Source of the DNA: Candidatus Nitrospira inopinata
GTDB taxonomy: Bacteria; Nitrospirota; Nitrospiria; Nitrospirales; Nitrospiraceae
NCBI RefSeq assembly: GCF_001458695.1
Contig: NZ_LN885086.1
Location: 2,100,001-2,132,000, forward strand
DNA length: 32,000 bases
Direction of reading: 5' to 3'
The position numbers and the translations under genes were made by a program. Position 1 is the stretch's first letter, and each line of letters begins with the position of its first letter. Below the pieces are notes generated by a model. It saw nothing but the letters and a program-made list of their open reading frames with translations. It was not told the DNA's origin and searched no databases. Shown here in pieces: positions 6,142 to 31,800 of this stretch.

Positions 6142-6603
6142 TCAAGGCTTGTAGCAGGAACGATCGGCTGGCTTTCCATCGTGAGAAAACTGATTTTCGT
6201 ACGCCATGACCTGCCAAATCTGTTCATCCGTCAACAGGCCCTTGTTCGCTTTCATCTTTGTCTTGGGAATTCCTTCCGCTATGCGCCAGAACCAGTAGGC
6301 GTCAGAATAACGACACACGATCTTGGGATCGCGAAGGTCCCGAGCGCCCTTTTTCACCGGCTTGCCGTCCTTTCCATGGCAGCTGGCGCAGTTGACGTCG
6401 GTTTTGAATTCGCCCAAATAGATCTTACGTCCCTCTTCAATAAATTTGGGGTCGGTCCATCCGCCGGCCGGCATTTTTTTGTCCGCATATTCAGGGGGAA
6501 CAGGTGGCAAGGGAGGCAAATCTTCGGCCGAGGCCATGCCTCCCGAAAGAAGGAGAACGCCTCCCATGACTATGACTGACAACCGAACCATTCTCCGGGT
6601 CAT
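6142..6603 (-). CDS. Periplasmic monoheme c-type cytochrome (class I-like)
   Basis: CASCHG heme-binding CxxCH motif. Sec signal peptide MTRRMVRLSVIVMGGVLLLSGGMASA. Strong SD AAGGAGG 5 nt upstream of ATG 6603. The longer ORF reaching 6681 lacks an SD. Confidence 0.85.
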   Translation of the reverse strand: MTRRMVRLSVIVMGGVLLLSGGMASAEDLPPLPPVPPEYADKKMPAGGWTDPKFIEEGRKIYLGEFKTDVNCASCHGKDGKPVKKGARDLRDPKIVCRYSDAYWFWRIAEGIPKTKMKANKGLLTDEQIWQVMAYENQFSHDGKPADRSCYKP

Positions 6604-6704
6604 TTGCACCTCCTTAAATGTATCTGGGATAGAGTGTGAATTGATGCGGTTTGATTCTGACTCGTCGGGCCTCGCGCGCATGTTCTACCTGCAAACAGCC
6701 GGTA

Positions 6705-6733
6705 ACTATAGCACAAACGGTCGGTTCTCTAAA
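6705..6733 (-). promoter_or_regulatory. Putative sigma-70 promoter with extended -10 (TTTAGA-N17-TATAGT, TG at -15/-14) for the cytochrome c gene
   Basis: The minus strand reads TTTAGA (6733-6728), a 17-nt spacer ending in TGC, then TATAGT (6710-6705). This is about 100 nt upstream of the start codon. Confidence 0.3.
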
Positions 6734-6885
6734 TATATTCGGAGAAAATTTCCAGTGTCCTTCAATGAACGACAGGCCGGTTTTTCGGAAAGTTTGTGGA
6801 CGTGATTCCGCGGGGTCGGTCATTTATACTCCGACTCAAGATTTATTTATTAGGGGGCTAATCGGCAAGGAGGGGGGAGAGAAAG

Positions 6886-7314
6886 ATGATGCGAGATCGT
6901 CGTTTTGCCGCTCTATTGCTCCTGACGGGAGCGTTGTGTTTGGGATGGACGATCTCATCGCCGGCTGACACGGGGAAAATCACGAAGGAGGCGAGAGAGA
7001 CGGTCGAAGCGGTGCAAGAATACACAATTCAGCAGAAAGAGGCGTTTCAGCGGGCGGCCCATGAAGAGTTAATCGCCGTTCAGAAGCAGATCACCGTCTT
7101 GCAAGGCAAGGTCCGCGACATGTCTGCCTCCGCAAGGGTGGATCTTCAGGAATCGATCAACGAGCTTGAAAAGAAAAGGGATAAGATGAAAGAGCAATTG
7201 AAAGAAATGCAGACCACGACCGATGAGAAGTGGCACGCTATCAGATCAAGCGTGGAGACCGCTATCGAGGAGTTGAAAGACGCTTGCCGAAAAGTGATGT
7301 CTCGTGTGCCGTGA
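6886..7314 (+). CDS. Hypothetical exported alpha-helical / coiled-coil protein
   Basis: SD AAGGAGGGGGG lies upstream of ATG 6886. Signal peptide MMRDRRFAALLLLTGALCLGW. The remainder is rich in E/K/Q heptad-like helix. No recognised family. Confidence 0.6.
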   Translation: MMRDRRFAALLLLTGALCLGWTISSPADTGKITKEARETVEAVQEYTIQQKEAFQRAAHEELIAVQKQITVLQGKVRDMSASARVDLQESINELEKKRDKMKEQLKEMQTTTDEKWHAIRSSVETAIEELKDACRKVMSRVP

Positions 7315-7359
7315 CGCAACCAACGATCAAGAAAAGCGGGATTTGAAAGGAGTCTGACT

Positions 7360-25708: not shown

Positions 25709-25753
25709 GAGCCGCGGGTTTTTCTTGCTTCATCGTTGAGAGTGCGGAGGACG

Positions 25754-26656
25754 ATGAGACGATTTCTGCATGGGCTGGGAATAATCGGTGTGCTGTTGGG
25801 GCAAGCGATCGGGGCCTGGTGGTGCGCCGCGCCTTCGGATGCGTACGCCCAGGCGGGGAAACCCGAAGGGCTCTACTACAAGTCCTGGGCCGTCATCATC
25901 GGCATTGAAAACTACCAAGTGGCTCCACCCGTCCCCGGAGCGATCGATGACGCGAAACGAGTCGCGCAGGCGTTTCGGCGGTTGGGATTTGACGAGGTCG
26001 TGGAGATTTACGAAAAGGACGCAACCTCTCGTCGGCTGCAACAGGTTTTCAACGATATTCTGCCGAGAAAAGTCGGTCGGATGGACAGACTGGTCGTCTT
26101 CTACATCGGTCACGCCGGCGCCGCGCGGGATGCGGAGGGAGAGGAACGGAGCTACCTTGTCCCTCTGGACGCGCAGATCGCCCACGTCAGTAAAGCCATG
26201 ACGGTCGAGCAGCTCAAGGAATTTACGCGGCGCACCGCGTCGAAACATACGGTGCTCTTGTTCGACGCGCCGGTCTTCGGATGGGAAGTGACGGCGCCGC
26301 CGCGGTTGTCGCTGGAGGGGCGGGTGGCGCCGGAGGATGAGAGGGAACGGCGGGCCGTCCAGGTGGTCAGCGCAGCGGGCAAGGGAGAGACATCGTTACG
26401 TCCCGACGGCAAGAGTCTCTTCGTGCGACAGTTGTTGGCCGGCCTCTCCGGCGAAGCGGACTCGGACGGAAACGGATGGCTGATGGCTTCTGAATTGGGA
26501 GCCTACCTTGTTGAACGGGTTGAACGTGCGTCCGACGGTGCTCAGCATCCCATCAGCCTCAGAATCGACGGCGACGGCGATACCGTGTTGATCGAAGGGG
26601 CCTCGATTTCGCCTCCGTCGGCGCCCATGTCGGGCGAAGGATCGATGTCTCCCTGA
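25754..26656 (+). CDS. Secreted caspase-fold (peptidase C14-like) protein lacking the catalytic cysteine
   Basis: Signal peptide MRRFLHGLGIIGVLLGQAIGAWWCAAPSDAYA. C14 pattern WAVIIGIENY...DDAKRVAQAFRRLGF...LVVFYIGHAG (His retained), then VLLFDAPVFG where D-[AS]-C-x-S-G is expected. C-terminal LFVRQLLAGLSGEADSDGNGWLMASELGAYL. The ORF-track start at 25736 is a TTG; ATG 25754 follows GGAGG. Confidence 0.72.
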   Translation: MRRFLHGLGIIGVLLGQAIGAWWCAAPSDAYAQAGKPEGLYYKSWAVIIGIENYQVAPPVPGAIDDAKRVAQAFRRLGFDEVVEIYEKDATSRRLQQVFNDILPRKVGRMDRLVVFYIGHAGAARDAEGEERSYLVPLDAQIAHVSKAMTVEQLKEFTRRTASKHTVLLFDAPVFGWEVTAPPRLSLEGRVAPEDERERRAVQVVSAAGKGETSLRPDGKSLFVRQLLAGLSGEADSDGNGWLMASELGAYLVERVERASDGAQHPISLRIDGDGDTVLIEGASISPPSAPMSGEGSMSP

Positions 26657-26754: not shown

Positions 26755-26925
26755 CTACCCCTGTTCTCCGCCTTTCAGATAGCCCAATCCGATCTTGATG
26801 GCGCGGCGGGTCATTTCCGCCCGACGCTCTACCGGATAGGCGGCCAAGACGGCTGCGGCCTTTGTGTCCTGCACGTCCAAATTCACGATGGTGATGATGC
26901 CGTTGTCGATGTGAATCTCCGCCAT
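26755..26925 (-). CDS. Hypothetical small protein (56 aa)
   Basis: ATG 26925 is preceded by AGGGAGA 8-9 nt upstream. MAEIHIDNGIITIVNLDVQDTKAAAVLAAYPVERRAEMTRRAIKIGLGYLKGGEQG. No family recognised. The ORF track extends it to 26946, where there is no SD. Confidence 0.4.
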   Translation of the reverse strand: MAEIHIDNGIITIVNLDVQDTKAAAVLAAYPVERRAEMTRRAIKIGLGYLKGGEQG

Positions 26926-27029
26926 AAAAGTATTCTCCCTATCCATGTGGTTGGTCGGTCAATCGGCCTTCCGATCCGTGTTGGAAAGGAAAACCGATGA
27001 TATTGCTCTACAGGTTGAAAGGCGTTTCG

Positions 27030-27058
27030 TTGACGGAACCAGGGGGGCATGTTAGCAT
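27030..27058 (+). promoter_or_regulatory. Putative sigma-70 promoter TTGACG-N17-TAGCAT for the four-lipoprotein operon
   Basis: TTGACG at 27030-27035, an exact 17-nt spacer, then TAGCAT at 27053-27058. This is about 75 nt upstream of ATG 27134. Confidence 0.45.
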
Positions 27059-27133
27059 GAAAACGCTTTTCTCTCGTGCTGACGGACGGTGGCCCTCACG
27101 GGGATCGTCCTGTGATTCGGAAGGAGGATTTTT

Positions 27134-27691
27134 ATGATGCGGCGGCAGACGAGGCTGGTCAATACCGGTCTTGTAGCCCTTCTTCTGGTGGGGCTCACGG
27201 CTTGTGGCGGTCCTCCCAAGTGGGTGGAAAGAGGGTCCGGGGCATTCAACGAAAAAGACCGGAAAGCGTTTTATGGGGTGGGGTCGGTGGTGGGCGTGAA
27301 GAACGAGCCCCTTGCCTGGGATACCGCTGAAAATCGAGCGCGGGCGGAAATCGCCAAGACGTTCGAAACCTACACGGGTTACCTGATGAGAGACTATGCC
27401 GCCTCGACGACGGCGGGGGATTTCACGCGGAACACCGAAGAGCAAAACGTCGAACGGGCCATCAAAACGGTCACCACGGTGACGTTGAGCGGCGTGCGTC
27501 CCGTCGATCGCTATAAAAATGAAAAAACCAACACCTACTACGTGCTCACCAAGCTCAGTCTGGAAGACATGAAGAACAATCTTGAACGGGCCAAGGAGCT
27601 GAACGCGGAGGTGCGCGACTTTGTCCGCAAAAACGCGGATCGCCTGTTTGATCGTCTTGAAAAAGAGGAAGAGAAACGGGGGATCCGGTAA
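27134..27691 (+). CDS. LPP20-like lipoprotein
   Basis: SD GGAGG lies 6 nt upstream. Canonical lipobox LVGLTAC. PKWVERGSGAF...FYGVGSVVG...AWDTAENRARAEIAKTFETY follows the LPP20-family pattern as I recall it (PxWV, aromatic-GxG, A..A.A.IAK helix). Charged helical C-terminus. Confidence 0.72.
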   Translation: MMRRQTRLVNTGLVALLLVGLTACGGPPKWVERGSGAFNEKDRKAFYGVGSVVGVKNEPLAWDTAENRARAEIAKTFETYTGYLMRDYAASTTAGDFTRNTEEQNVERAIKTVTTVTLSGVRPVDRYKNEKTNTYYVLTKLSLEDMKNNLERAKELNAEVRDFVRKNADRLFDRLEKEEEKRGIR

Positions 27692-27758
27692 AGCCCACCC
27701 CACGGCCTTGTGAAGCGCGATGGTTAGGATGGTCAGTTAGGTTAAAGGAGTCACCGAC

Positions 27759-28373
27759 GTGATCCGAACCGCGTTCCGGCCCGTCGTTCTATTGTTCGCG
27801 TGCGCGCTTCTCGCGGCGGGCGGCTGCGGGCACGAGGTCAAGGTGACGCGCGTGGACGCCGGCGTCGTGACCGATCTCAGCGGCCGCTGGAACGACACGG
27901 ATTCGCGGATGGTGGCCGAAGCGATGGTGAAGGAAGCCTTGGAATACCCCTGGCTCGGGAACTTCTCGAAGGCGAAACAGCGTCAGCCGGTCGTGGTGGT
28001 CGGCACGGTGGTCAACAGCAGTCATGAGCACATCAACGTCAAGACCTTCATCACGGATCTGGAGCGGGAGCTCACCAACTCTCAAAAAGTCACGTTCGTA
28101 GCGGGCAAGCAAGAACGGGAGGAAGTCCGGGCCGAGCGGAAAGAACAGGCGGTCTATGCCCGCGAAGACACCCAAAAAGCTCCGGGGAAAGAAAGCGGAG
28201 CCGACTTCATGCTGAAGGGAACCATTGCCACGATCGTGGACGAGGCCGACGGCACCAAGGCGGTGTTCTATCAGGTGGACCTTCAGATGATCGATTTGGA
28301 AAGCAACGCGAAGGTCTGGTACGGGCAGAAGAAGATCAAGAAAGTGGTCGAAAGGAAACGGACGGTGTTTTAA
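27759..28373 (+). CDS. LpoB-like (COG3417-type) lipoprotein
   Basis: SD AAGGAG lies 8 nt upstream of GTG 27759. Lipoprotein-type signal (LLFAC / LAAGGC). DLSGRWNDTDSRMVAEAMVKEAL, PVVVVGTVVNSSHEHINVKTFITDLERELTNS and GADFMLKGTI...VFYQVDLQMIDLESNAKVW match my memory of penicillin-binding protein activator LpoB-family proteins. Confidence 0.75.
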   Translation: MIRTAFRPVVLLFACALLAAGGCGHEVKVTRVDAGVVTDLSGRWNDTDSRMVAEAMVKEALEYPWLGNFSKAKQRQPVVVVGTVVNSSHEHINVKTFITDLERELTNSQKVTFVAGKQEREEVRAERKEQAVYAREDTQKAPGKESGADFMLKGTIATIVDEADGTKAVFYQVDLQMIDLESNAKVWYGQKKIKKVVERKRTVF

Positions 28374-28385
28374 CAGGTCCGAGAG

Positions 28386-29900
28386 TTGAAATCCCTCCTC
28401 CTGCGCTTCAGCCGCCGTGGTTCCACGCGGAGGCAGTCAAGCGGTCTCATCGCAAACGGTTCCCTCTTCCTTGTCATAGCCGTCATAGATCTTCTCGTCG
28501 GCTGTGCATCCACCAACCGCTACGCCCTCATTGAGCAAAGTCTGCTCGCGGGCGACCCCGCACAAGCAGCTTCAATCGTCGAACGGGCTGAGTCGCAGTA
28601 CGGATCAAAGAGTCGTCTGTTGTATTTGATGGATCGGGGAATGGCCCTGCATTTGGCGGGAGACTACGCGCAAAGCAACGAAGCGCTTGAGCAGGCCGAA
28701 GAGATCGTCGAGCGACTCTACACCAGGACCGTTCGATCTGAAACGCTGGCGTTTCTGACGAACGACAATGCGCTGCCATATGAAGGGGATCCCTATGAGC
28801 ACGTCATGATCAACGTCGTGAAGGCCCTCAATTATGCGGCGCAGAACGACGTCGGGGGAGCGTTGGTGGAGGCCAGGCGCATCGATCATCGCCTCAACGT
28901 GCTGAGCGACAGGCTCAAGGGCAAGGGCAAGGGAAAGAACGGCTATGGAAACGACGGCTTCGCCCGCTACCTGAGCGGCATGTTGTACGAAGCGGCTGGA
29001 GATCTGAACAACGCGTTCATTGCCTATCGCAATGCCTGCGAGGCCTATGAGTCGATGCGCGGTTGGTCCCAGGTGGCCTGTCCTCCGTCGTTGCGCGCCG
29101 ATCTGTTGTCATCCGCCGAAGCTCTCGGACTTGCGGACGAGGTGGATCGGTATCGAAGCACATATCCCGACGTCGAATGGTTGTCCGCGTCGGCCCGTCA
29201 ACGGCTCGCCCAAGTCGTCATGATCAGCTATAATGGGCGCGCCCCTCGGAAAGAGGATCTGTATCTTGATCTCCCGATCAGTCTGGACGCCTTGCAGTTG
29301 GTGTTGTTGAATCGCGGATTCTCCCCTTCGTTCGGAAGCCGGGATCGGGTGATGGACAGCGTTCTCTACGGACTCAGCGGGCGGGTGGTGAGAGTCGCGC
29401 TTCCCCGCTTGGTTCAACAAAAGACGAAAATTCCTGTCGAGACCATGACGTTGACCGACGAGCAAGGCGCTTCCTATGCCACCCGGTCTGAGCGAGCCCA
29501 GGATCTGACGGCGTTGGCGGAGAAGGCCCTCGCGGAGCGTCTGCCCGCCATGACCGTGAAGGCCGTGGCCCGGGCCGCCACGAAATTTTCCATGGCGGAG
29601 GGAGCGGTCATCGGCTCTCAACAGGCCGTGGGGAGAGACGCCGCGCCCTGGGTGGGGTTGTTGGTCAGCCTGTTGGCCAAGGGGTTGGCCGTGGCTTCGG
29701 AAGAAGCCGATAAACGGAGTTGGCGGACCCTGCCGGATGAAATCCACGTGGCGCGGGTGTGGGTGCCTTCGGGTCGGTATCGGGCAACCGTTCATCCTTC
29801 GGGCGGGGGCGTGGCCGTCTGGGCGGCCGGGGCAGAGGAGCCGTCTCTTAATCTTTCCCCGGGTCAAACGATGTTTCTCATTCGGCGCGTGGTGCAATGA
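28386..29900 (+). CDS. Large TPR-like lipoprotein of unknown function
   Basis: Basic N-region followed by the canonical lipobox DLLVGC. Helical-repeat stretches: LYLMDRGMALHLAGDYAQSNEALEQAEEI, VVKALNYAAQNDVGGALVEARRID, YLSGMLYEAAGDLNNAFIAYRNACEAYE. TTG start 12 nt after the previous stop. Possibly COG3014-type, but that assignment is from memory and weak. Confidence 0.65.
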   Translation: MKSLLLRFSRRGSTRRQSSGLIANGSLFLVIAVIDLLVGCASTNRYALIEQSLLAGDPAQAASIVERAESQYGSKSRLLYLMDRGMALHLAGDYAQSNEALEQAEEIVERLYTRTVRSETLAFLTNDNALPYEGDPYEHVMINVVKALNYAAQNDVGGALVEARRIDHRLNVLSDRLKGKGKGKNGYGNDGFARYLSGMLYEAAGDLNNAFIAYRNACEAYESMRGWSQVACPPSLRADLLSSAEALGLADEVDRYRSTYPDVEWLSASARQRLAQVVMISYNGRAPRKEDLYLDLPISLDALQLVLLNRGFSPSFGSRDRVMDSVLYGLSGRVVRVALPRLVQQKTKIPVETMTLTDEQGASYATRSERAQDLTALAEKALAERLPAMTVKAVARAATKFSMAEGAVIGSQQAVGRDAAPWVGLLVSLLAKGLAVASEEADKRSWRTLPDEIHVARVWVPSGRYRATVHPSGGGVAVWAAGAEEPSLNLSPGQTMFLIRRVVQ

Positions 29901-31027
29901 TGCTCCCCTGCCGAATCAGGCTGCGTCGATCCGCTCTGCGATCTGTTCTCACGGTAAGCTGCATCGGGCTGATCGGGCCGTCCTGGCTCGGTTGCGCATG
30001 GATCGGTGGACAGGCCGAGCCGGCCTGGATCGACGACGCCAATCGAAAATATCCTCCGGCCGAGTATCTGACCGGTATGGGACAGGCCGATAATCGGCAA
30101 GGCGCGGCCGATCAGGCGTACGCGGCCGTGGCGCGGATTTTCAAGGCGGAGGTGGACGCCCGCGCAAAAGATTGGGAGTCCTATTTTGTGATCGAACGGC
30201 GGGGCTCGACGAACGTGGAGCGGAGGTTGACGCTGGAGACCGTCACGAAAGTCTCGACCGACAAGGTGCTTGAGAACGTCAGGGTGCTGGAAACCTGGCA
30301 CGATAGGACCAAGGGATTGTACTATGCGTTGGCCGTGCTGAATCGCGCTCAAGCGGAGGCTTCGTTGTTGGATCGGTTGTCGGCGCTGGACAGGACGATT
30401 GAGTCGGACATCGCGGAATCGCGGCGCGCGTCGGACAAGTTGATCACGGTTCGCAACCTGCGGAAGGCCGCCGGAAATTTGGTGTTGCGGGAGGTGTATA
30501 ATGCCGACCTGCGCGTCGTTCGTCCGAGCGGGCGAGGCGAGGCCTCTCCGTACGACGTGAACGACATATCCAAGGAGCTGGCGCGATTTCTTTCCACCAA
30601 CCTGGTGGTGGCGGTGCGCATGGCCGGCGACCACGCCGAAGTCGCTCAACACGCTTTGATGGAAGGATTGATCCGCGAGGGGATCACCGTGACGGCGGGA
30701 GCCGGTGAGGGGACGGACGCGGCGTTGACGGCGCAAGGCGTCACCCGACTCTTGCCCGTTGAGGTCCATGATCCCTATTTCAAGTACGTTCGATGGTGCG
30801 GCGACGTCGAGGTGCTGGACACAGCGAGCGGCCGCGTTCTGGGCGTTGTTTCACGAGGCGGAAAAGAAGGGCATCTCACGGAGCGGGAAGCGGCGACCAG
30901 GGCCTTGCGCGACATGCAGCAACGCCTGTCGTCGGAAGTGGCGGTCCTGATCGCGGCGCATATTTTCGGGGAAGCCGAACTGCCGACGCCGGAGGGAATG
31001 CCGGCCGGTTGTCCGAGAGATGAGTGA
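29897..31027 (+). CDS. Lipoprotein with an N-terminal LPP20-like domain and a C-terminal domain of unknown function
   Basis: The ATG overlaps the previous stop (ATGA at 29897-29900). Cys-containing signal (TVSC / WLGC). EPAWIDDANRKYPPAEYLTGMGQADNRQGAADQAYAAVARIFKAEV repeats the PxW[VI]...Y/F-x-G-x-G...A..A.A.IxK pattern of the first gene in the operon. Confidence 0.68.
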   Translation: MMLPCRIRLRRSALRSVLTVSCIGLIGPSWLGCAWIGGQAEPAWIDDANRKYPPAEYLTGMGQADNRQGAADQAYAAVARIFKAEVDARAKDWESYFVIERRGSTNVERRLTLETVTKVSTDKVLENVRVLETWHDRTKGLYYALAVLNRAQAEASLLDRLSALDRTIESDIAESRRASDKLITVRNLRKAAGNLVLREVYNADLRVVRPSGRGEASPYDVNDISKELARFLSTNLVVAVRMAGDHAEVAQHALMEGLIREGITVTAGAGEGTDAALTAQGVTRLLPVEVHDPYFKYVRWCGDVEVLDTASGRVLGVVSRGGKEGHLTEREAATRALRDMQQRLSSEVAVLIAAHIFGEAELPTPEGMPAGCPRDE

Positions 31028-31082
31028 TCAAAGGGGACGATGCCGTAACGATTCATCTACCATGACGAGGAGGTGTGACACG

Positions 31083-31352
31083 GTGAGCACGATCGGAAAA
31101 TCGCCGGTGAGCAAGGCTCCGCGGAGTCGGGGCAGAGGGTTGACCAAAACGGGCCCGAAAATTTCAAGTCGGTTGGCCAAACAACGGTTGAACGAGCGGT
31201 TGAAAAAAGACACCGAGTCGTTCAATCAGGACAATCTTGCCGTGACCTTGCGGAAGGAAGGTTATGAGGAGTTGCCGCTGGACGAGTTGCAAGATCGTCT
31301 CTCCAAACTGCCGGGGCCGTTGGCGGAAATCATCCTGAAGGGGAGGGTGTAA
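31083..31352 (+). CDS. Putative antitoxin partner of the PIN toxin (family not recognised)
   Basis: GTG 31083 is preceded by GAGGAGG 8 nt upstream. The gene ends 4 nt before the PIN gene. Very basic N-terminal half and acidic C-terminal half. The ORF-track start at 31020 overlaps the preceding lipoprotein gene. Confidence 0.45.
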   Translation: MSTIGKSPVSKAPRSRGRGLTKTGPKISSRLAKQRLNERLKKDTESFNQDNLAVTLRKEGYEELPLDELQDRLSKLPGPLAEIILKGRV

Positions 31353-31356
31353 ACGG

Positions 31357-31800
31357 ATGCCGTACTATTACTTCGACTCGACAGCGTTGGTGAAACGATA
31401 CAGCATGGAACGGGGGACCAGGATCGTCAATAAACTGCTGGTCAAACGGGGAAAGGTCGCCGTTCTTCCGCCCTGGTCCGTGACGGATTTCTATACCGCC
31501 ATGACCACGCGCGCTCAGGAAGGAAAAATCACCAGGGACGACTGCTACTCGGTGCTCTACAAGTTTGAGATCGAGTCGAAACAGGGATTGTTTCATTTCA
31601 TCGTTCCGACCGTCACGACGTATCTCTCGACCAAGGAATTGGCCCTGGAATATCCGTTTCTACGGTCTCCGCAGGTGATGCATCTGGCGCTGGCGTTGGA
31701 ACTCAAGCCGCTCCGATTGACCGTAGTGAGCGCCGATGCCCAGTTGCTGGTTGCCTCAAAAACGGCGGGCCTGCACATCATCAATCCGGAAGAGGATTGA
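31357..31800 (+). CDS. PIN-domain (VapC-like) type II toxin
   Basis: MPYYYFDSTALVKRY N-terminus with the first conserved Asp. C-terminal VVSADAQLLVASKTAGLHIINPE. SD GGGGAGGG lies upstream. Confidence 0.78.
   Translation: MPYYYFDSTALVKRYSMERGTRIVNKLLVKRGKVAVLPPWSVTDFYTAMTTRAQEGKITRDDCYSVLYKFEIESKQGLFHFIVPTVTTYLSTKELALEYPFLRSPQVMHLALALELKPLRLTVVSADAQLLVASKTAGLHIINPEED

Follow-up and report, generated by a model that had tools for sequence, protein, structure and literature searches.

A conserved operon of four lipoproteins in Nitrospira, built on a linked LpoB-fold and COG3014 pair

In Candidatus Nitrospira inopinata, four consecutive genes (g1 to g4) form one tightly packed operon of four membrane-anchored lipoproteins. 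The operon is conserved and is not a new kind of system, since its core pair recurs across many phyla and has studied relatives in Campylobacter and Helicobacter. The LpoB-fold (g2) and COG3014 (g3) lipoproteins are an ancient, obligately linked pair, and the LPP20 lipoproteins (g1 and g4) are frequent accessory partners. From the observed gene arrangement and co-conservation, the lipoprotein signals and the families and folds assigned, the most likely reading, held tentatively, is that the four products would form a membrane-tethered periplasmic hetero-oligomeric complex, which may lie at the outer membrane and be linked to peptidoglycan enzymes, with a role in envelope and peptidoglycan homeostasis. 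The window is the whole stretch of 32,000 nucleotides analysed, and all positions refer to it.

The four lipoprotein genes lie on the plus strand between positions 27,134 and 31,027, with spacers of 67 nt (g1/g2), 12 nt (g2/g3) and -4 nt (g3/g4, an ATGA overlap), and these coordinates confirm the co-directional arrangement described in the sequence-only reading. A sigma-70-like promoter candidate is present about 75 nt upstream of g1 (27,030 to 27,058, plus strand; TTGACG, 17 nt, TAGCAT, TG extension; 9/12 match); because two such sites were found in the scanned region versus 1.0 ± 1.1 expected by chance, it is weak evidence alone and suggestive. A GGAGG ribosome-binding site precedes g1, and a scan of the plus strand found no terminator-like sites within the operon. 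All four products carry a conserved lipidation cysteine: Cys24 (LTAC) of g1 is kept in 97% of 76 orthologues, Cys23 (AGGC) of g2 in 98% of 88 sequences, Cys40 (LVGC) of g3 in at least 90% of 70 diverse family members, and Cys33 (LGC) of g4 in at least 90% of 37 sequences. The earlier claim of a lipoprotein signal on each product thus stands, but the sites had been mis-assigned for two of them: LFAC Cys15 of g2 is kept in only 30% of the 88 sequences, and VSC Cys22 of g4 is not conserved in the 37-sequence alignment. The LPP20, LpoB-fold, TPR and LPP20 content first proposed is borne out by Pfam and profile comparisons for g1, g2 and g4, and by predicted structure for g3.

The short LPP20-family lipoprotein g1 (27,134 to 27,691, plus strand; 185 aa) scores 24.9 bits against Pfam LPP20, slightly below the cut-off of 25.9, and its orthologues score 26.1 and 27.1 bits. 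The long family member g4 (29,897 to 31,027, plus strand; 376 aa), whose start overlaps the g3 stop, scores 47.5 bits against the same cut-off. The N-terminal pattern common to g1 and g4 reflects true homology, as hhalign aligns g1 with the g4 N-terminus over 147 columns (probability 96.5%, E 8e-10). In g4 a helical hairpin (150-208) separates the LPP20 domain (57-149) from an alpha/beta domain at the C-terminus (221-356) that resembles LptE, PelC, CsgG and HP1454 in fold, and Cys301 and Cys372 (in the GCPR end) are conserved. Foldseek with the AF2 model of g4 (pLDDT 77) gave HP1454 as the best match (4kzs, E 7e-7), then HpaA, CC_3750, FlgT (3w1e and the 8z5n LPHT ring), LptE, CsgG and PelC (dodecamers), all with low TM-scores of 0.2-0.3 on the query. 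The likeness to HP1454 is structural only (TM 0.31 / 0.42), and no match at the sequence level was found.

The product of g2 (27,759 to 28,373, plus strand; 204 aa) scores 141 bits against Pfam LpoB, and has a short linker after the lipidation site and a conserved basic tail at its C-terminus, GQKKIKKVVERKRTVF. Downstream, g3 (28,386 to 29,900, plus strand; 504 aa) has orthologues that carry the NCBI name "COG3014 family protein"; this family comprises 4193 representative clusters, and a lipobox is present in 114 of 140 full-length representatives. Pfam gives weak TPR matches only on the g3 sequence, while Foldseek with its AF2 model (pLDDT 87, pTM 0.85) retrieved TPR proteins, including the pilus-biogenesis TPR lipoprotein PilW. 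The model predicts an N-terminal TPR domain (about 45-272), an alpha/beta region, a helical hairpin and a beta-sandwich C-terminal half. The C-terminal half is unique and conserved; g3 contains an invariant motif, EEADKRSWRTLP, and residues E162, D442, R444 and W446 are invariant among the 70 diverse family members.

Within Nitrospiraceae the four genes are kept together, in the order g1-g2-g3-g4, in 71/71 assessable species. The neighbours of the operon are housekeeping genes (glyS, ppdK, ribD, transketolase and acs), and synteny extends to the flanking pseudo-caspase and the downstream gene pair in about 65-79 loci, which contradicts the earlier description of the region as an accessory stretch. 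The Pfam scan of window genes turned up no flagellar, curli, pilus, secretion, penicillin-binding protein (PBP) or peptidoglycan enzyme gene, in agreement with the earlier statement on the first two and on PBP genes. A YhdP/AsmA-like gene is present at the window start, 25 kb from the operon.

Beyond Nitrospira, the invariant core across many bacterial phyla is an LpoB-like gene followed by a COG3014 gene; LPP20 partners often accompany it but are optional. In 66 of 68 diverse metagenomic loci (locus GC 0.29 to 0.69), the gene immediately after the LpoB-like one is COG3014, and the median gap is 11.5 nt. The pairing also occurs in 8/8 distinct non-Nitrospira loci looked up (L085-L093, where L086 duplicates L085), among them loci from other Nitrospirota, Manganitrophaceae and Omnitrophota. 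An LPP20-like gene follows COG3014 directly in 23/39 loci and an LPP20 gene is upstream of the pair in 11/52, while the full four-gene layout is present in 5/30, some with a g3 that shares only 25-43% identity with that of the window. That the genes are so strictly adjacent and translationally coupled across phyla argues for a joint function.

In the proposed mechanism, the four lipid-anchored proteins would assemble under the outer membrane and maintain envelope and peptidoglycan homeostasis. Through its TPR domain, g3 may serve as an adaptor whose partners would most plausibly be enzymes that remodel peptidoglycan, as suggested for HP0018 of H. pylori and by analogy with E. coli NlpI, a TPR lipoprotein that is a scaffold for peptidoglycan hydrolases and whose loss causes hypervesiculation. 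Its fixed partner would be g2, acting other than as a periplasm-spanning PBP1b activator, and the LPP20 proteins g1 and g4 may provide an oligomerising platform. The short spacers, the scan without internal terminators, the conserved lipidation cysteines, the co-conservation, the TPR and g4 folds, the short linker of g2 and the role of NlpI all favour such a complex. Studies of relatives also argue for it: cells deleted for hp0018 hypervesiculate and lose their helical shape, AmiA and MltD co-immunoprecipitate with HP0018 (one co-IP replicate plus modelling), and this TPR lipoprotein gene adjoins the LpoB homologue hp1457 in enterohepatic Helicobacter (PMC11394524); the C. jejuni lipoprotein genes cj0089-cj0090-cj0091 are co-transcribed (Oakland et al. 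2011, PMC3100323); and HP1454 and HP1456, encoded in one operon, each came down with other envelope lipoproteins in pull-downs (PMC11756786). However, an HP1454-HP1456 interaction was not detected by BACTH in H. pylori, and deletion of hp1456 gave no phenotype, with motor and discs unchanged (PMC11756786). Other points against the complex are the single co-IP replicate behind AmiA and MltD, the lack of any peptidoglycan enzyme gene among the Pfam-scanned window genes, and the putative status of g3 as a homologue of HP0018 and Cj0089, a link drawn from family naming, size, TPR content, lipoprotein character and synteny.

In one alternative, g2 would be a true LpoB-type activator that acts on a class A PBP, with the other three lipoproteins modulating or localising the activation. 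The Pfam score favours this, as does an Aeromonas homologous gene in a ycfL-lpoB-thiK context like that of E. coli lpoB, and a profile of the g2 family picks up solved LpoB structures, if only at E 6.5e-6; however, a search with the single g2 sequence found no LpoB structure, and the score of 90.8 bits against the LpoB equivalog TIGR02722 is below the cut-off of 110.55. Although E. coli LpoB and g2 have the Pfam domain LpoB in common, they are 17% identical, and the conserved basic tail of g2 is absent from E. coli LpoB. The latter has a Pro-rich disordered linker of about 55 aa, needed to reach PBP1b through the sacculus, while in g2 only about 15-20 residues separate the lipid cysteine from the domain, so g2 is unlikely to span the periplasm. 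No PBP gene accompanies it among the Pfam-scanned window genes. As judged from its sequence, g2 is not an E. coli-type LpoB, since the features that define LpoB as the activator of PBP1b are missing. The activator role is very unlikely.

A ring or disc scaffold, in which g1 and g4 would polymerise under the outer membrane like FlgP, FlgT and FlgO, with g2 and g3 as assembly or anchoring factors, for a non-flagellar trans-envelope structure or outer-membrane stiffening, is unlikely but better supported. In its favour, g1 and g4 both belong to the LPP20 family, and the structural matches of the g4 model include FlgT as well as PelC and CsgG, lipoproteins that form rings. The Lpp20 fold is reported for FlgP and FlgT, FlgP self-associates, and both FlgP and FapH are interaction partners of HP1454 and HP1456 (PMC11756786). 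Against this are the low TM-scores, the unchanged H. pylori motor and discs, the scanned window genes, with no flagellar, pilus or secretion gene found, and the optional status of LPP20 beside the invariant g2-g3 pair. Matches of g4 to LptE, PelC and CsgG and of g3 to PilW, with the YhdP/AsmA-like gene, though 25 kb off, could instead suggest export or plug accessories, with the g4 C-terminal domain and g2 assisting a channel for polymer export or lipid/LPS insertion and the TPR protein as a periplasmic adaptor like PelB or of the PilW/PilF type. This is very unlikely: the structural matches are at the level of generic folds, no sequence-level relation to LptE, PelC, CsgG or PilW-type families was found, and neither the window nor the diverse loci inspected have a linked beta-barrel, glycosyltransferase or transporter gene. 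Least probable is that each lipoprotein acts separately as a surface-exposed or vesicle-borne adhesin or antigen, with no joint periplasmic machine. The cj0091 mutant shows less adhesion to INT 407 cells and poorer chick colonisation, Cj0091 is immunogenic (PMC3100323), and Lpp20 is an H. pylori antigen present in extracellular vesicles (PMC12029599), but these defects in adhesion could arise indirectly from changes in the envelope. The g2-g3 pair also occurs in free-living lineages from very different environments (such as Nitrospira and Omnitrophota), and its strict adjacency and coupling argue for a joint function.

Among known systems, the flagellar rings (FlgP, FlgT and FlgO; the Vibrio H-ring and the Campylobacterota basal disc) include an LPP20-family protein, FlgP, and one matched by the g4 model, FlgT. 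The flgO-flgP operon encodes LPP20-type and TolB_N/LpoB-like-fold lipoproteins, the same pairing of folds as in Nitrospira; however, no Pfam match to FlgO or FlgT was found among the operon proteins, and the ring systems are without a COG3014 partner such as g3. NlpI and g3 are both lipoproteins with a TPR domain, and hypervesiculation follows the loss of NlpI and of the g3 relative HP0018, but g3 is twice as long, has its own conserved C-terminal half and shows no detected sequence relationship, so the resemblance is best regarded as analogy, not family membership.

Relatives in the literature are the C. jejuni operon and, in H. pylori, HP0018 together with the lpp20 operon (HP1454, HP1456 and HP1457). 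HP1456 (Lpp20), the founding LPP20 protein, corresponds to g1 and the g4 N-terminal domain; HP1454, a three-domain protein with an Lpp20-like first domain (PMC11756786), resembles g4 in architecture; and HP1457 is an LpoB homologue adjoining lpp20 (PMC11394524, PMC12029599). With HP0018 matching g3, all four Nitrospira components have counterparts, but the H. pylori TPR gene is unlinked from the lpp20 operon, and the literature treats the H. pylori proteins mainly as antigens or as interactors of the flagellar motor, while no flagellar gene is among the Pfam-scanned window genes. The possibility, raised in the sequence-only reading, of an already characterised system is therefore partly realised, as the components match cj0089-91, the lpp20 operon and HP0018 (PMC3100323, PMC11394524, PMC11756786); these studies give phenotypes without mechanism, and the view that no function is assigned holds in that no mechanistic function is on record. 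The C. jejuni cluster, like that of Nitrospira, is made solely of lipoproteins. Cj0089, a TPR lipoprotein of about 450 aa, resembles g3, and Cj0091 (about 207 aa, old COG3417 "SpaP" domain) corresponds to g2, as it is described as orthologous to HP1457 (PMC11394524). However, the TPR gene comes first in C. jejuni, reversing the order in Nitrospira, a small third gene absent from Nitrospira (Cj0090, 122 aa) lies between the TPR and LpoB-like genes, and there are no LPP20 genes, compared with two in Nitrospira. The Aeromonas caviae locus (COG3014, DUF1425, LpoB) has the content and order of the C. jejuni operon, with DUF1425/YcfL as the positional counterpart of Cj0090. The E. coli lpoB locus (ycfL-lpoB-thiK-nagZ) has no COG3014 gene, whereas g2 adjoins one; the Aeromonas COG3014-DUF1425-LpoB-kinase arrangement links that locus to the COG3014-LpoB pairing, and ycfL-lpoB of E. 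coli looks like a remnant.

The operon consists of four lipoprotein genes on the + strand: g1 (27134-27691, 185 aa), a short LPP20-family gene; g2 (27759-28373, 204 aa), encoding an LpoB-fold protein; g3 (28386-29900, 504 aa), encoding a COG3014-family protein with TPRs; and g4 (29897-31027, 376 aa), a long LPP20-family gene. The sequence-only reading had placed all four open reading frames at exactly these positions. Spacers of 67 nt and 12 nt separate g1 from g2 and g2 from g3, while g3 and g4 share a 4-nt ATGA overlap; a GGAGG ribosome-binding site lies 5' of g1, and no terminator-like structure was found on the + strand between g1 and g4. The candidate promoter, a sigma-70-like site at 27030-27058 (+), is only suggestive, because such sites are barely commoner here than in shuffled sequence (2 found, 1.0 +/- 1.1 expected). 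All four products have a lipobox with a family-conserved cysteine, as had been predicted: LTAC in g1 (Cys24, kept in 97% of 76 orthologues), AGGC in g2 (Cys23, 98% of 88 sequences), LVGC in g3 (Cys40, at least 90% of 70 diverse family members), and xGC[AST]W in g4 (Cys33, at least 90% of 37 sequences). The alternative lipoboxes proposed at the same time for g2 (LFAC, 30%) and g4 (VSC) are not conserved. In E. coli, lipoproteins without Asp at position +2 are sorted to the outer membrane; Asp is absent from this position in all four products, which would be targeted to the outer membrane if the E. coli rule holds in Nitrospira.

The domain assignments first made by eye (LPP20, LpoB, TPR, and LPP20) are borne out by Pfam, hhalign, and, for the TPR domain, AlphaFold2 with Foldseek. 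The g4 protein is a clear member of the LPP20 family (Pfam PF02169, 47.5 bits with a cut-off of 25.9), and g1 falls just under that cut-off at 24.9 bits, with orthologues passing at 26.1 and 27.1 bits. In hhalign, the LPP20 region of g4 and the helix that follows it align with the g1 family (probability 96.5%, E 8e-10), so the N-terminal pattern seen in both proteins reflects real homology. The idea of g4 as a fusion of g1-like and g2-like parts, with its C-terminal domain diverged from a g2 copy, was rejected, as hhalign aligns only the signal peptides. In the g4 model (pLDDT 77) the LPP20 domain is followed by a helical hairpin and a C-terminal alpha/beta domain, the same order as in the three-domain layout of H. 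pylori HP1454 (Lpp20-like, helical, alpha/beta). HP1454 (4kzs) is also the best Foldseek match to the model (E 7e-7), with TM-scores of only 0.31 and 0.42 over 313 columns; searches of solved structures with the g4 sequence or profile found no sequence-level match to HP1454. Two further cysteines, C301 (within W300-C301) and C372 (in the C-terminal G-C372-P-R), are invariant in 37 g4 homologues and could form a disulfide pinning the C-terminal tail to the alpha/beta domain.

Searches of solved structures with the single sequences of g1 and g3 gave nothing meaningful, and TPR matches to g3 by sequence are weak. The AlphaFold2 model of g3, built from 50 homologues, is confident (pLDDT 87, pTM 0.85). 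The Foldseek matches of its N-terminal half are TPR proteins, PilW, kinesin light chain, and MamA among them; its C-terminal half is modeled as an alpha/beta region, a long helical hairpin, and a beta-sandwich, for which Foldseek found no solved structural analogue. NCBI gives orthologues of g3 (67-75% identity) the name "COG3014 family protein", and g3 shares the features of that family: sequence membership, the character of a TPR lipoprotein of ~450-500 aa, and an adjoining LpoB-like gene. The family comprises 4193 representative clusters (50% identity; E <= 1e-3), with a lipobox in 114 of 140 full-length representatives. Its invariant motif, EEADKRSWRTLP, corresponds to E439, D442, R444, and W446 of g3, in which the invariant E162 is also present. 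If the hydrophobic helix at 419-437 of g3 were a membrane hairpin conserved in the family, it might have accounted for why the C. jejuni lipoprotein Cj0089 fractionates with the inner membrane; this was discarded because the median hydropathy across the family is 0.82, with values above 1.6 in only 3 of 70 members.

In all 71 Nitrospiraceae species loci with both flanks assessable, the four genes run g1-g2-g3-g4 on one strand, which answers the proposed check for conserved order in related genomes. The best 80 loci in the profile search of genome contigs (alignment A4) all belong to Nitrospiraceae, so this search speaks to conservation within the family. The closest matches of g3 and g4 are proteins from Nitrospira MAGs (91-97% identity). 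At least one genome of the genus, that of Nitrospira sp. CG24B, has two diverged copies of the cluster, L084 (NEWS02000004.1, 103588-117081) and L031 (same contig, 374078-387562), with g3 proteins ~60% and 67% identical to that of the window. In the second copy g4 is shortened to 228 aa, the LPP20 domain plus little else, and the cluster is closely followed by a small ORF/PIN gene pair, acs, and caspase genes. The homologue search returned many COG3014 proteins of ~497 aa at 60-63% identity, which suggests that paralogy of the cluster is widespread in Nitrospira.

Upstream of the operon, Nitrospiraceae loci have a gene for acetyl-CoA synthetase and, on the same strand in 65 of 69, a caspase-fold gene. 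In the window the latter encodes a secreted-type Peptidase_C14 protein (25736-26656, +; Pfam E 1.7e-14) that retains the surroundings of the catalytic His (GHA). Where the catalytic Cys would be expected, this protein and most Nitrospira orthologues have DAPxxGW, so that the product resembles a conserved pseudo-caspase. Orthologues are often longer (~460 aa), with weak or faint C-terminal TPR matches in those inspected, at L084 and at another compared locus (L001). A 63-aa ORF between the caspase-fold gene and g1 (26755-26946, -) has no Pfam match and is probably a real small gene, with tblastn matches in most Nitrospira loci (75 match rows, 63-97% amino-acid identity); it is on the opposite strand and forms a transcriptional break between the caspase gene and the lipoprotein operon. 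Downstream, two genes on the + strand encode proteins of 110 aa (31020-31352) and 147 aa (31357-31800). They begin 8 nt before the g4 stop, keep their place after the operon in 79 and 75 loci, and may be co-transcribed with it. The sequence-only reading called them a toxin-antitoxin pair; neither protein has a Pfam match, and a PIN-domain gene is at the matching position in the paralogous CG24B locus. Elsewhere in the window the Pfam scan identified housekeeping genes (glyS, ppdK, ribD, transketolase, and a dihydrolipoamide-dehydrogenase-like oxidoreductase), so the region is core chromosome. Base composition is unremarkable and the flanks of the operon are syntenic, which together with the housekeeping neighbors rules out an accessory island, and the earlier description of an accessory stretch has to be abandoned. 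Apart from the operon, the Pfam scan of the larger window genes showed one clearly envelope-related gene, a YhdP/AsmA-family fragment (11-1846, +), of an envelope lipid-transport family, ~25 kb away.

Beyond Nitrospira, an LpoB-like gene lies immediately upstream of COG3014 in eight of eight distinct loci from distant representatives (other Nitrospirota, Manganitrophaceae, Omnitrophota, one with a T9SS-type neighbor, and others). Metagenomes scanned with the LpoB-like gene as seed yielded 80 loci with GC of 0.29-0.69 and g3 proteins 24-65% identical to that of the window. COG3014 is directly downstream of the LpoB-like gene in 66 of 68 assessable loci, with a median gap of 11.5 nt. An LPP20-like gene directly follows COG3014 in 23 of 39 and directly precedes the LpoB-like gene in 11 of 52, and the full layout occurs in 5 of 30, in some cases with a g3 only 25-43% identical to that of the window. 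Across phyla, the pairing of an LpoB-like gene with COG3014 behind it is nearly invariant, which is a new comparative point; on this adjacency in distant and metagenomic loci, g2-g3 is the invariant core, and the LPP20 genes are its frequent, ancient, dispensable partners. At one distant locus (L089) the pair and a 59-aa ORF are followed by lgt (6583-7356), for prolipoprotein diacylglyceryl transferase, and at one metagenomic locus (L095, 4671-7226) the COG3014 gene is tandemly duplicated. The matches of a diverse COG3014 profile search were mainly from Nitrospirota, with Cj0089 and its H. pylori homologue HP0018 not among them, and seeking the Cj0089 lipobox among COG3014 representatives gave nothing useful.

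The operon is real, as first proposed, and co-conserved, and has no assigned mechanism. Beyond its established gene structure, lipoprotein signals, folds, and co-conservation, we tentatively infer, at somewhat less than an even chance, physical association, localization, and clients: the four lipoproteins would assemble into a periplasmic complex tethered to a membrane. In its obligate core the LpoB-fold protein would bind the COG3014 TPR protein, with the LPP20 proteins g1 and g4 as an oligomeric platform. The TPR domain of g3 would recruit clients, most plausibly peptidoglycan-remodeling enzymes, as suggested by analogy with NlpI, a TPR lipoprotein of E. coli that serves as adaptor for peptidoglycan hydrolases, and by the HP0018 data. 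HP0018 is the H. pylori homologue of Cj0089; its deletion leads to outer-membrane vesicle chains and less helical cells, and AmiA and MltD co-immunoprecipitated with it (PMC11394524). Against the complex, this partner evidence is thin, no interaction between HP1454 and HP1456 (Lpp20) was detected, and hp1456 deletion gave no motility, disc, or bacitracin phenotype (PMC11756786). FlgP and FapH do interact with both HP1454 and HP1456 (PMC11756786), and the g4 model has FlgT among its further structural matches, with HpaA, CC_3750, LptE, CsgG, and PelC, all at modest TM-scores. The flagellar FlgP/FlgT/FlgO rings have a flagellar gene context that the Nitrospira operon does not share, since neither the Pfam scan of window genes nor the inspected loci showed a flagellar gene; a FlgP/FlgT-like ring scaffold unrelated to flagella is an unlikely reading. 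An accessory for export or a plug, of the LptE/PelC/CsgG kind, is very unlikely, and independent surface adhesins or antigens are slightly less probable again; Cj0091 has a role in adherence and chick colonization (PMC3100323).

That g2 is a true PBP activator is likewise improbable. The protein matches the Pfam LpoB domain with 141 bits and scores 90.8 bits against the LpoB equivalog NCBIfam TIGR02722, under its cut-off of 110.55. A search of solved structures with the single g2 sequence did not find LpoB, while the family profile matched it at only E 6.5e-6, and identity to E. coli LpoB is 17%. The Pfam scan of window genes turned up no PBP gene, in agreement with the sequence-only reading that neither flagellar nor PBP genes are nearby. 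Its long disordered linker lets E. coli LpoB cross the periplasm to PBP1b, where it binds the UB2H domain and stimulates activity. Neither g2 nor related proteins of other phyla have the ~55-residue Pro-rich insert that follows the lipid Cys of E. coli LpoB (alignment A8); only ~15-20 residues separate the lipid anchor of g2 from its domain, so g2 must act near its anchoring membrane. The C-terminal tail of g2 (residues 188-204) is basic and strongly conserved (GQKKIKK...F), and E. coli LpoB lacks it. In COG3014-paired LpoB-like proteins GQKKIKK is invariant and is followed by ~7 residues, usually ending in Phe or Trp (Leu once); the Aeromonas protein has a degenerate version, and E. coli LpoB, without a COG3014 partner at its locus, has no basic tail. 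The TPR half of g3 has conserved acidic residues (E133, E138, E162, D190, and E202). Together with the distribution of the tail, these residues suggest a contact in which it would dock in an acidic TPR groove of g3. Judged by sequence, g2 is not an E. coli-type LpoB, and the complex built on the g2-g3 core is the reading followed here.

In Aeromonas caviae the order is COG3014 - DUF1425 (YcfL) - LpoB - kinase, and in E. coli K-12 it is hinT - ycfL - lpoB - thiK - nagZ, so that the E. coli ycfL-lpoB locus is the Aeromonas locus without its COG3014 gene. The A. caviae locus compared (L083, NZ_AP026896.1) is filed as "plasmid pKAM479_3", and at 4.94 Mb with 18 annotated features is evidently the chromosome. 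Enterobacterial lpoB looks like a derived remnant of the LpoB-like/COG3014 pair. It is possible, though doubtful, that the LpoB-fold and COG3014 TPR pair, often with LPP20, is an ancient, previously unrecognized envelope machine across many diderm phyla. If so, cj0089-91, the lpp20 operon with HP0018, and E. coli ycfL-lpoB would be fragments of one module, and PBP1b activation by enterobacterial LpoB would be a late exaptation after loss of COG3014 and gain of the long linker. The ancestral complex would then differ, for example in tethering and regulating peptidoglycan hydrolases at the outer membrane, or as an outer-membrane-stabilizing lattice. Nitrospira are key nitrifiers with an unusual, enlarged periplasm, and a four-lipoprotein operon in every sampled species is likely important for their envelope. 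The comparison ties Lpp20 and HP1454, HP1457, HP0018, Cj0089-91, and YcfL-LpoB, separately studied and functionally unexplained, into one widespread module, and these gene-module data give a concrete hypothesis for the origin of LpoB. The comparison also nominates the g2-g3 pair, in tractable carriers such as Aeromonas or Campylobacter, as the unit that might explain why H. pylori cells without hp0018 hypervesiculate and change shape.

Literature searches turned up nothing on the function of COG3014 or DUF1425/YcfL. The cluster does have precedents, with counterparts published for Campylobacter and Helicobacter. In C. jejuni, three lipoprotein genes are transcribed together: cj0089 (a 453-aa TPR lipoprotein), cj0090 (122 aa), and cj0091 (207 aa) (PMC3100323). 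In enterohepatic Helicobacter, hp0018 adjoins hp1457, an LpoB homologue orthologous to cj0091 (PMC11394524), and COG3014-LpoB-like adjacency is thus reported for both genera (PMC11394524, PMC3100323). In H. pylori, lpp20 (HP1456) is flanked by hp1457 (PMC12029599), and HP1454, the first domain of which is Lpp20-like, is in one operon with HP1456 (PMC11756786). These reports give Campylobacterota counterparts for all four Nitrospira components, split over two loci; that of g3 would be HP0018/Cj0089, on the basis of family naming, size, TPR content, lipoprotein nature, and synteny. The Nitrospira operon demonstrates no new mechanism but adds a variant and a comparative link: it lacks the DUF1425 gene that Proteobacteria and Campylobacter have, and it unites in one operon the parts that Helicobacter has split.
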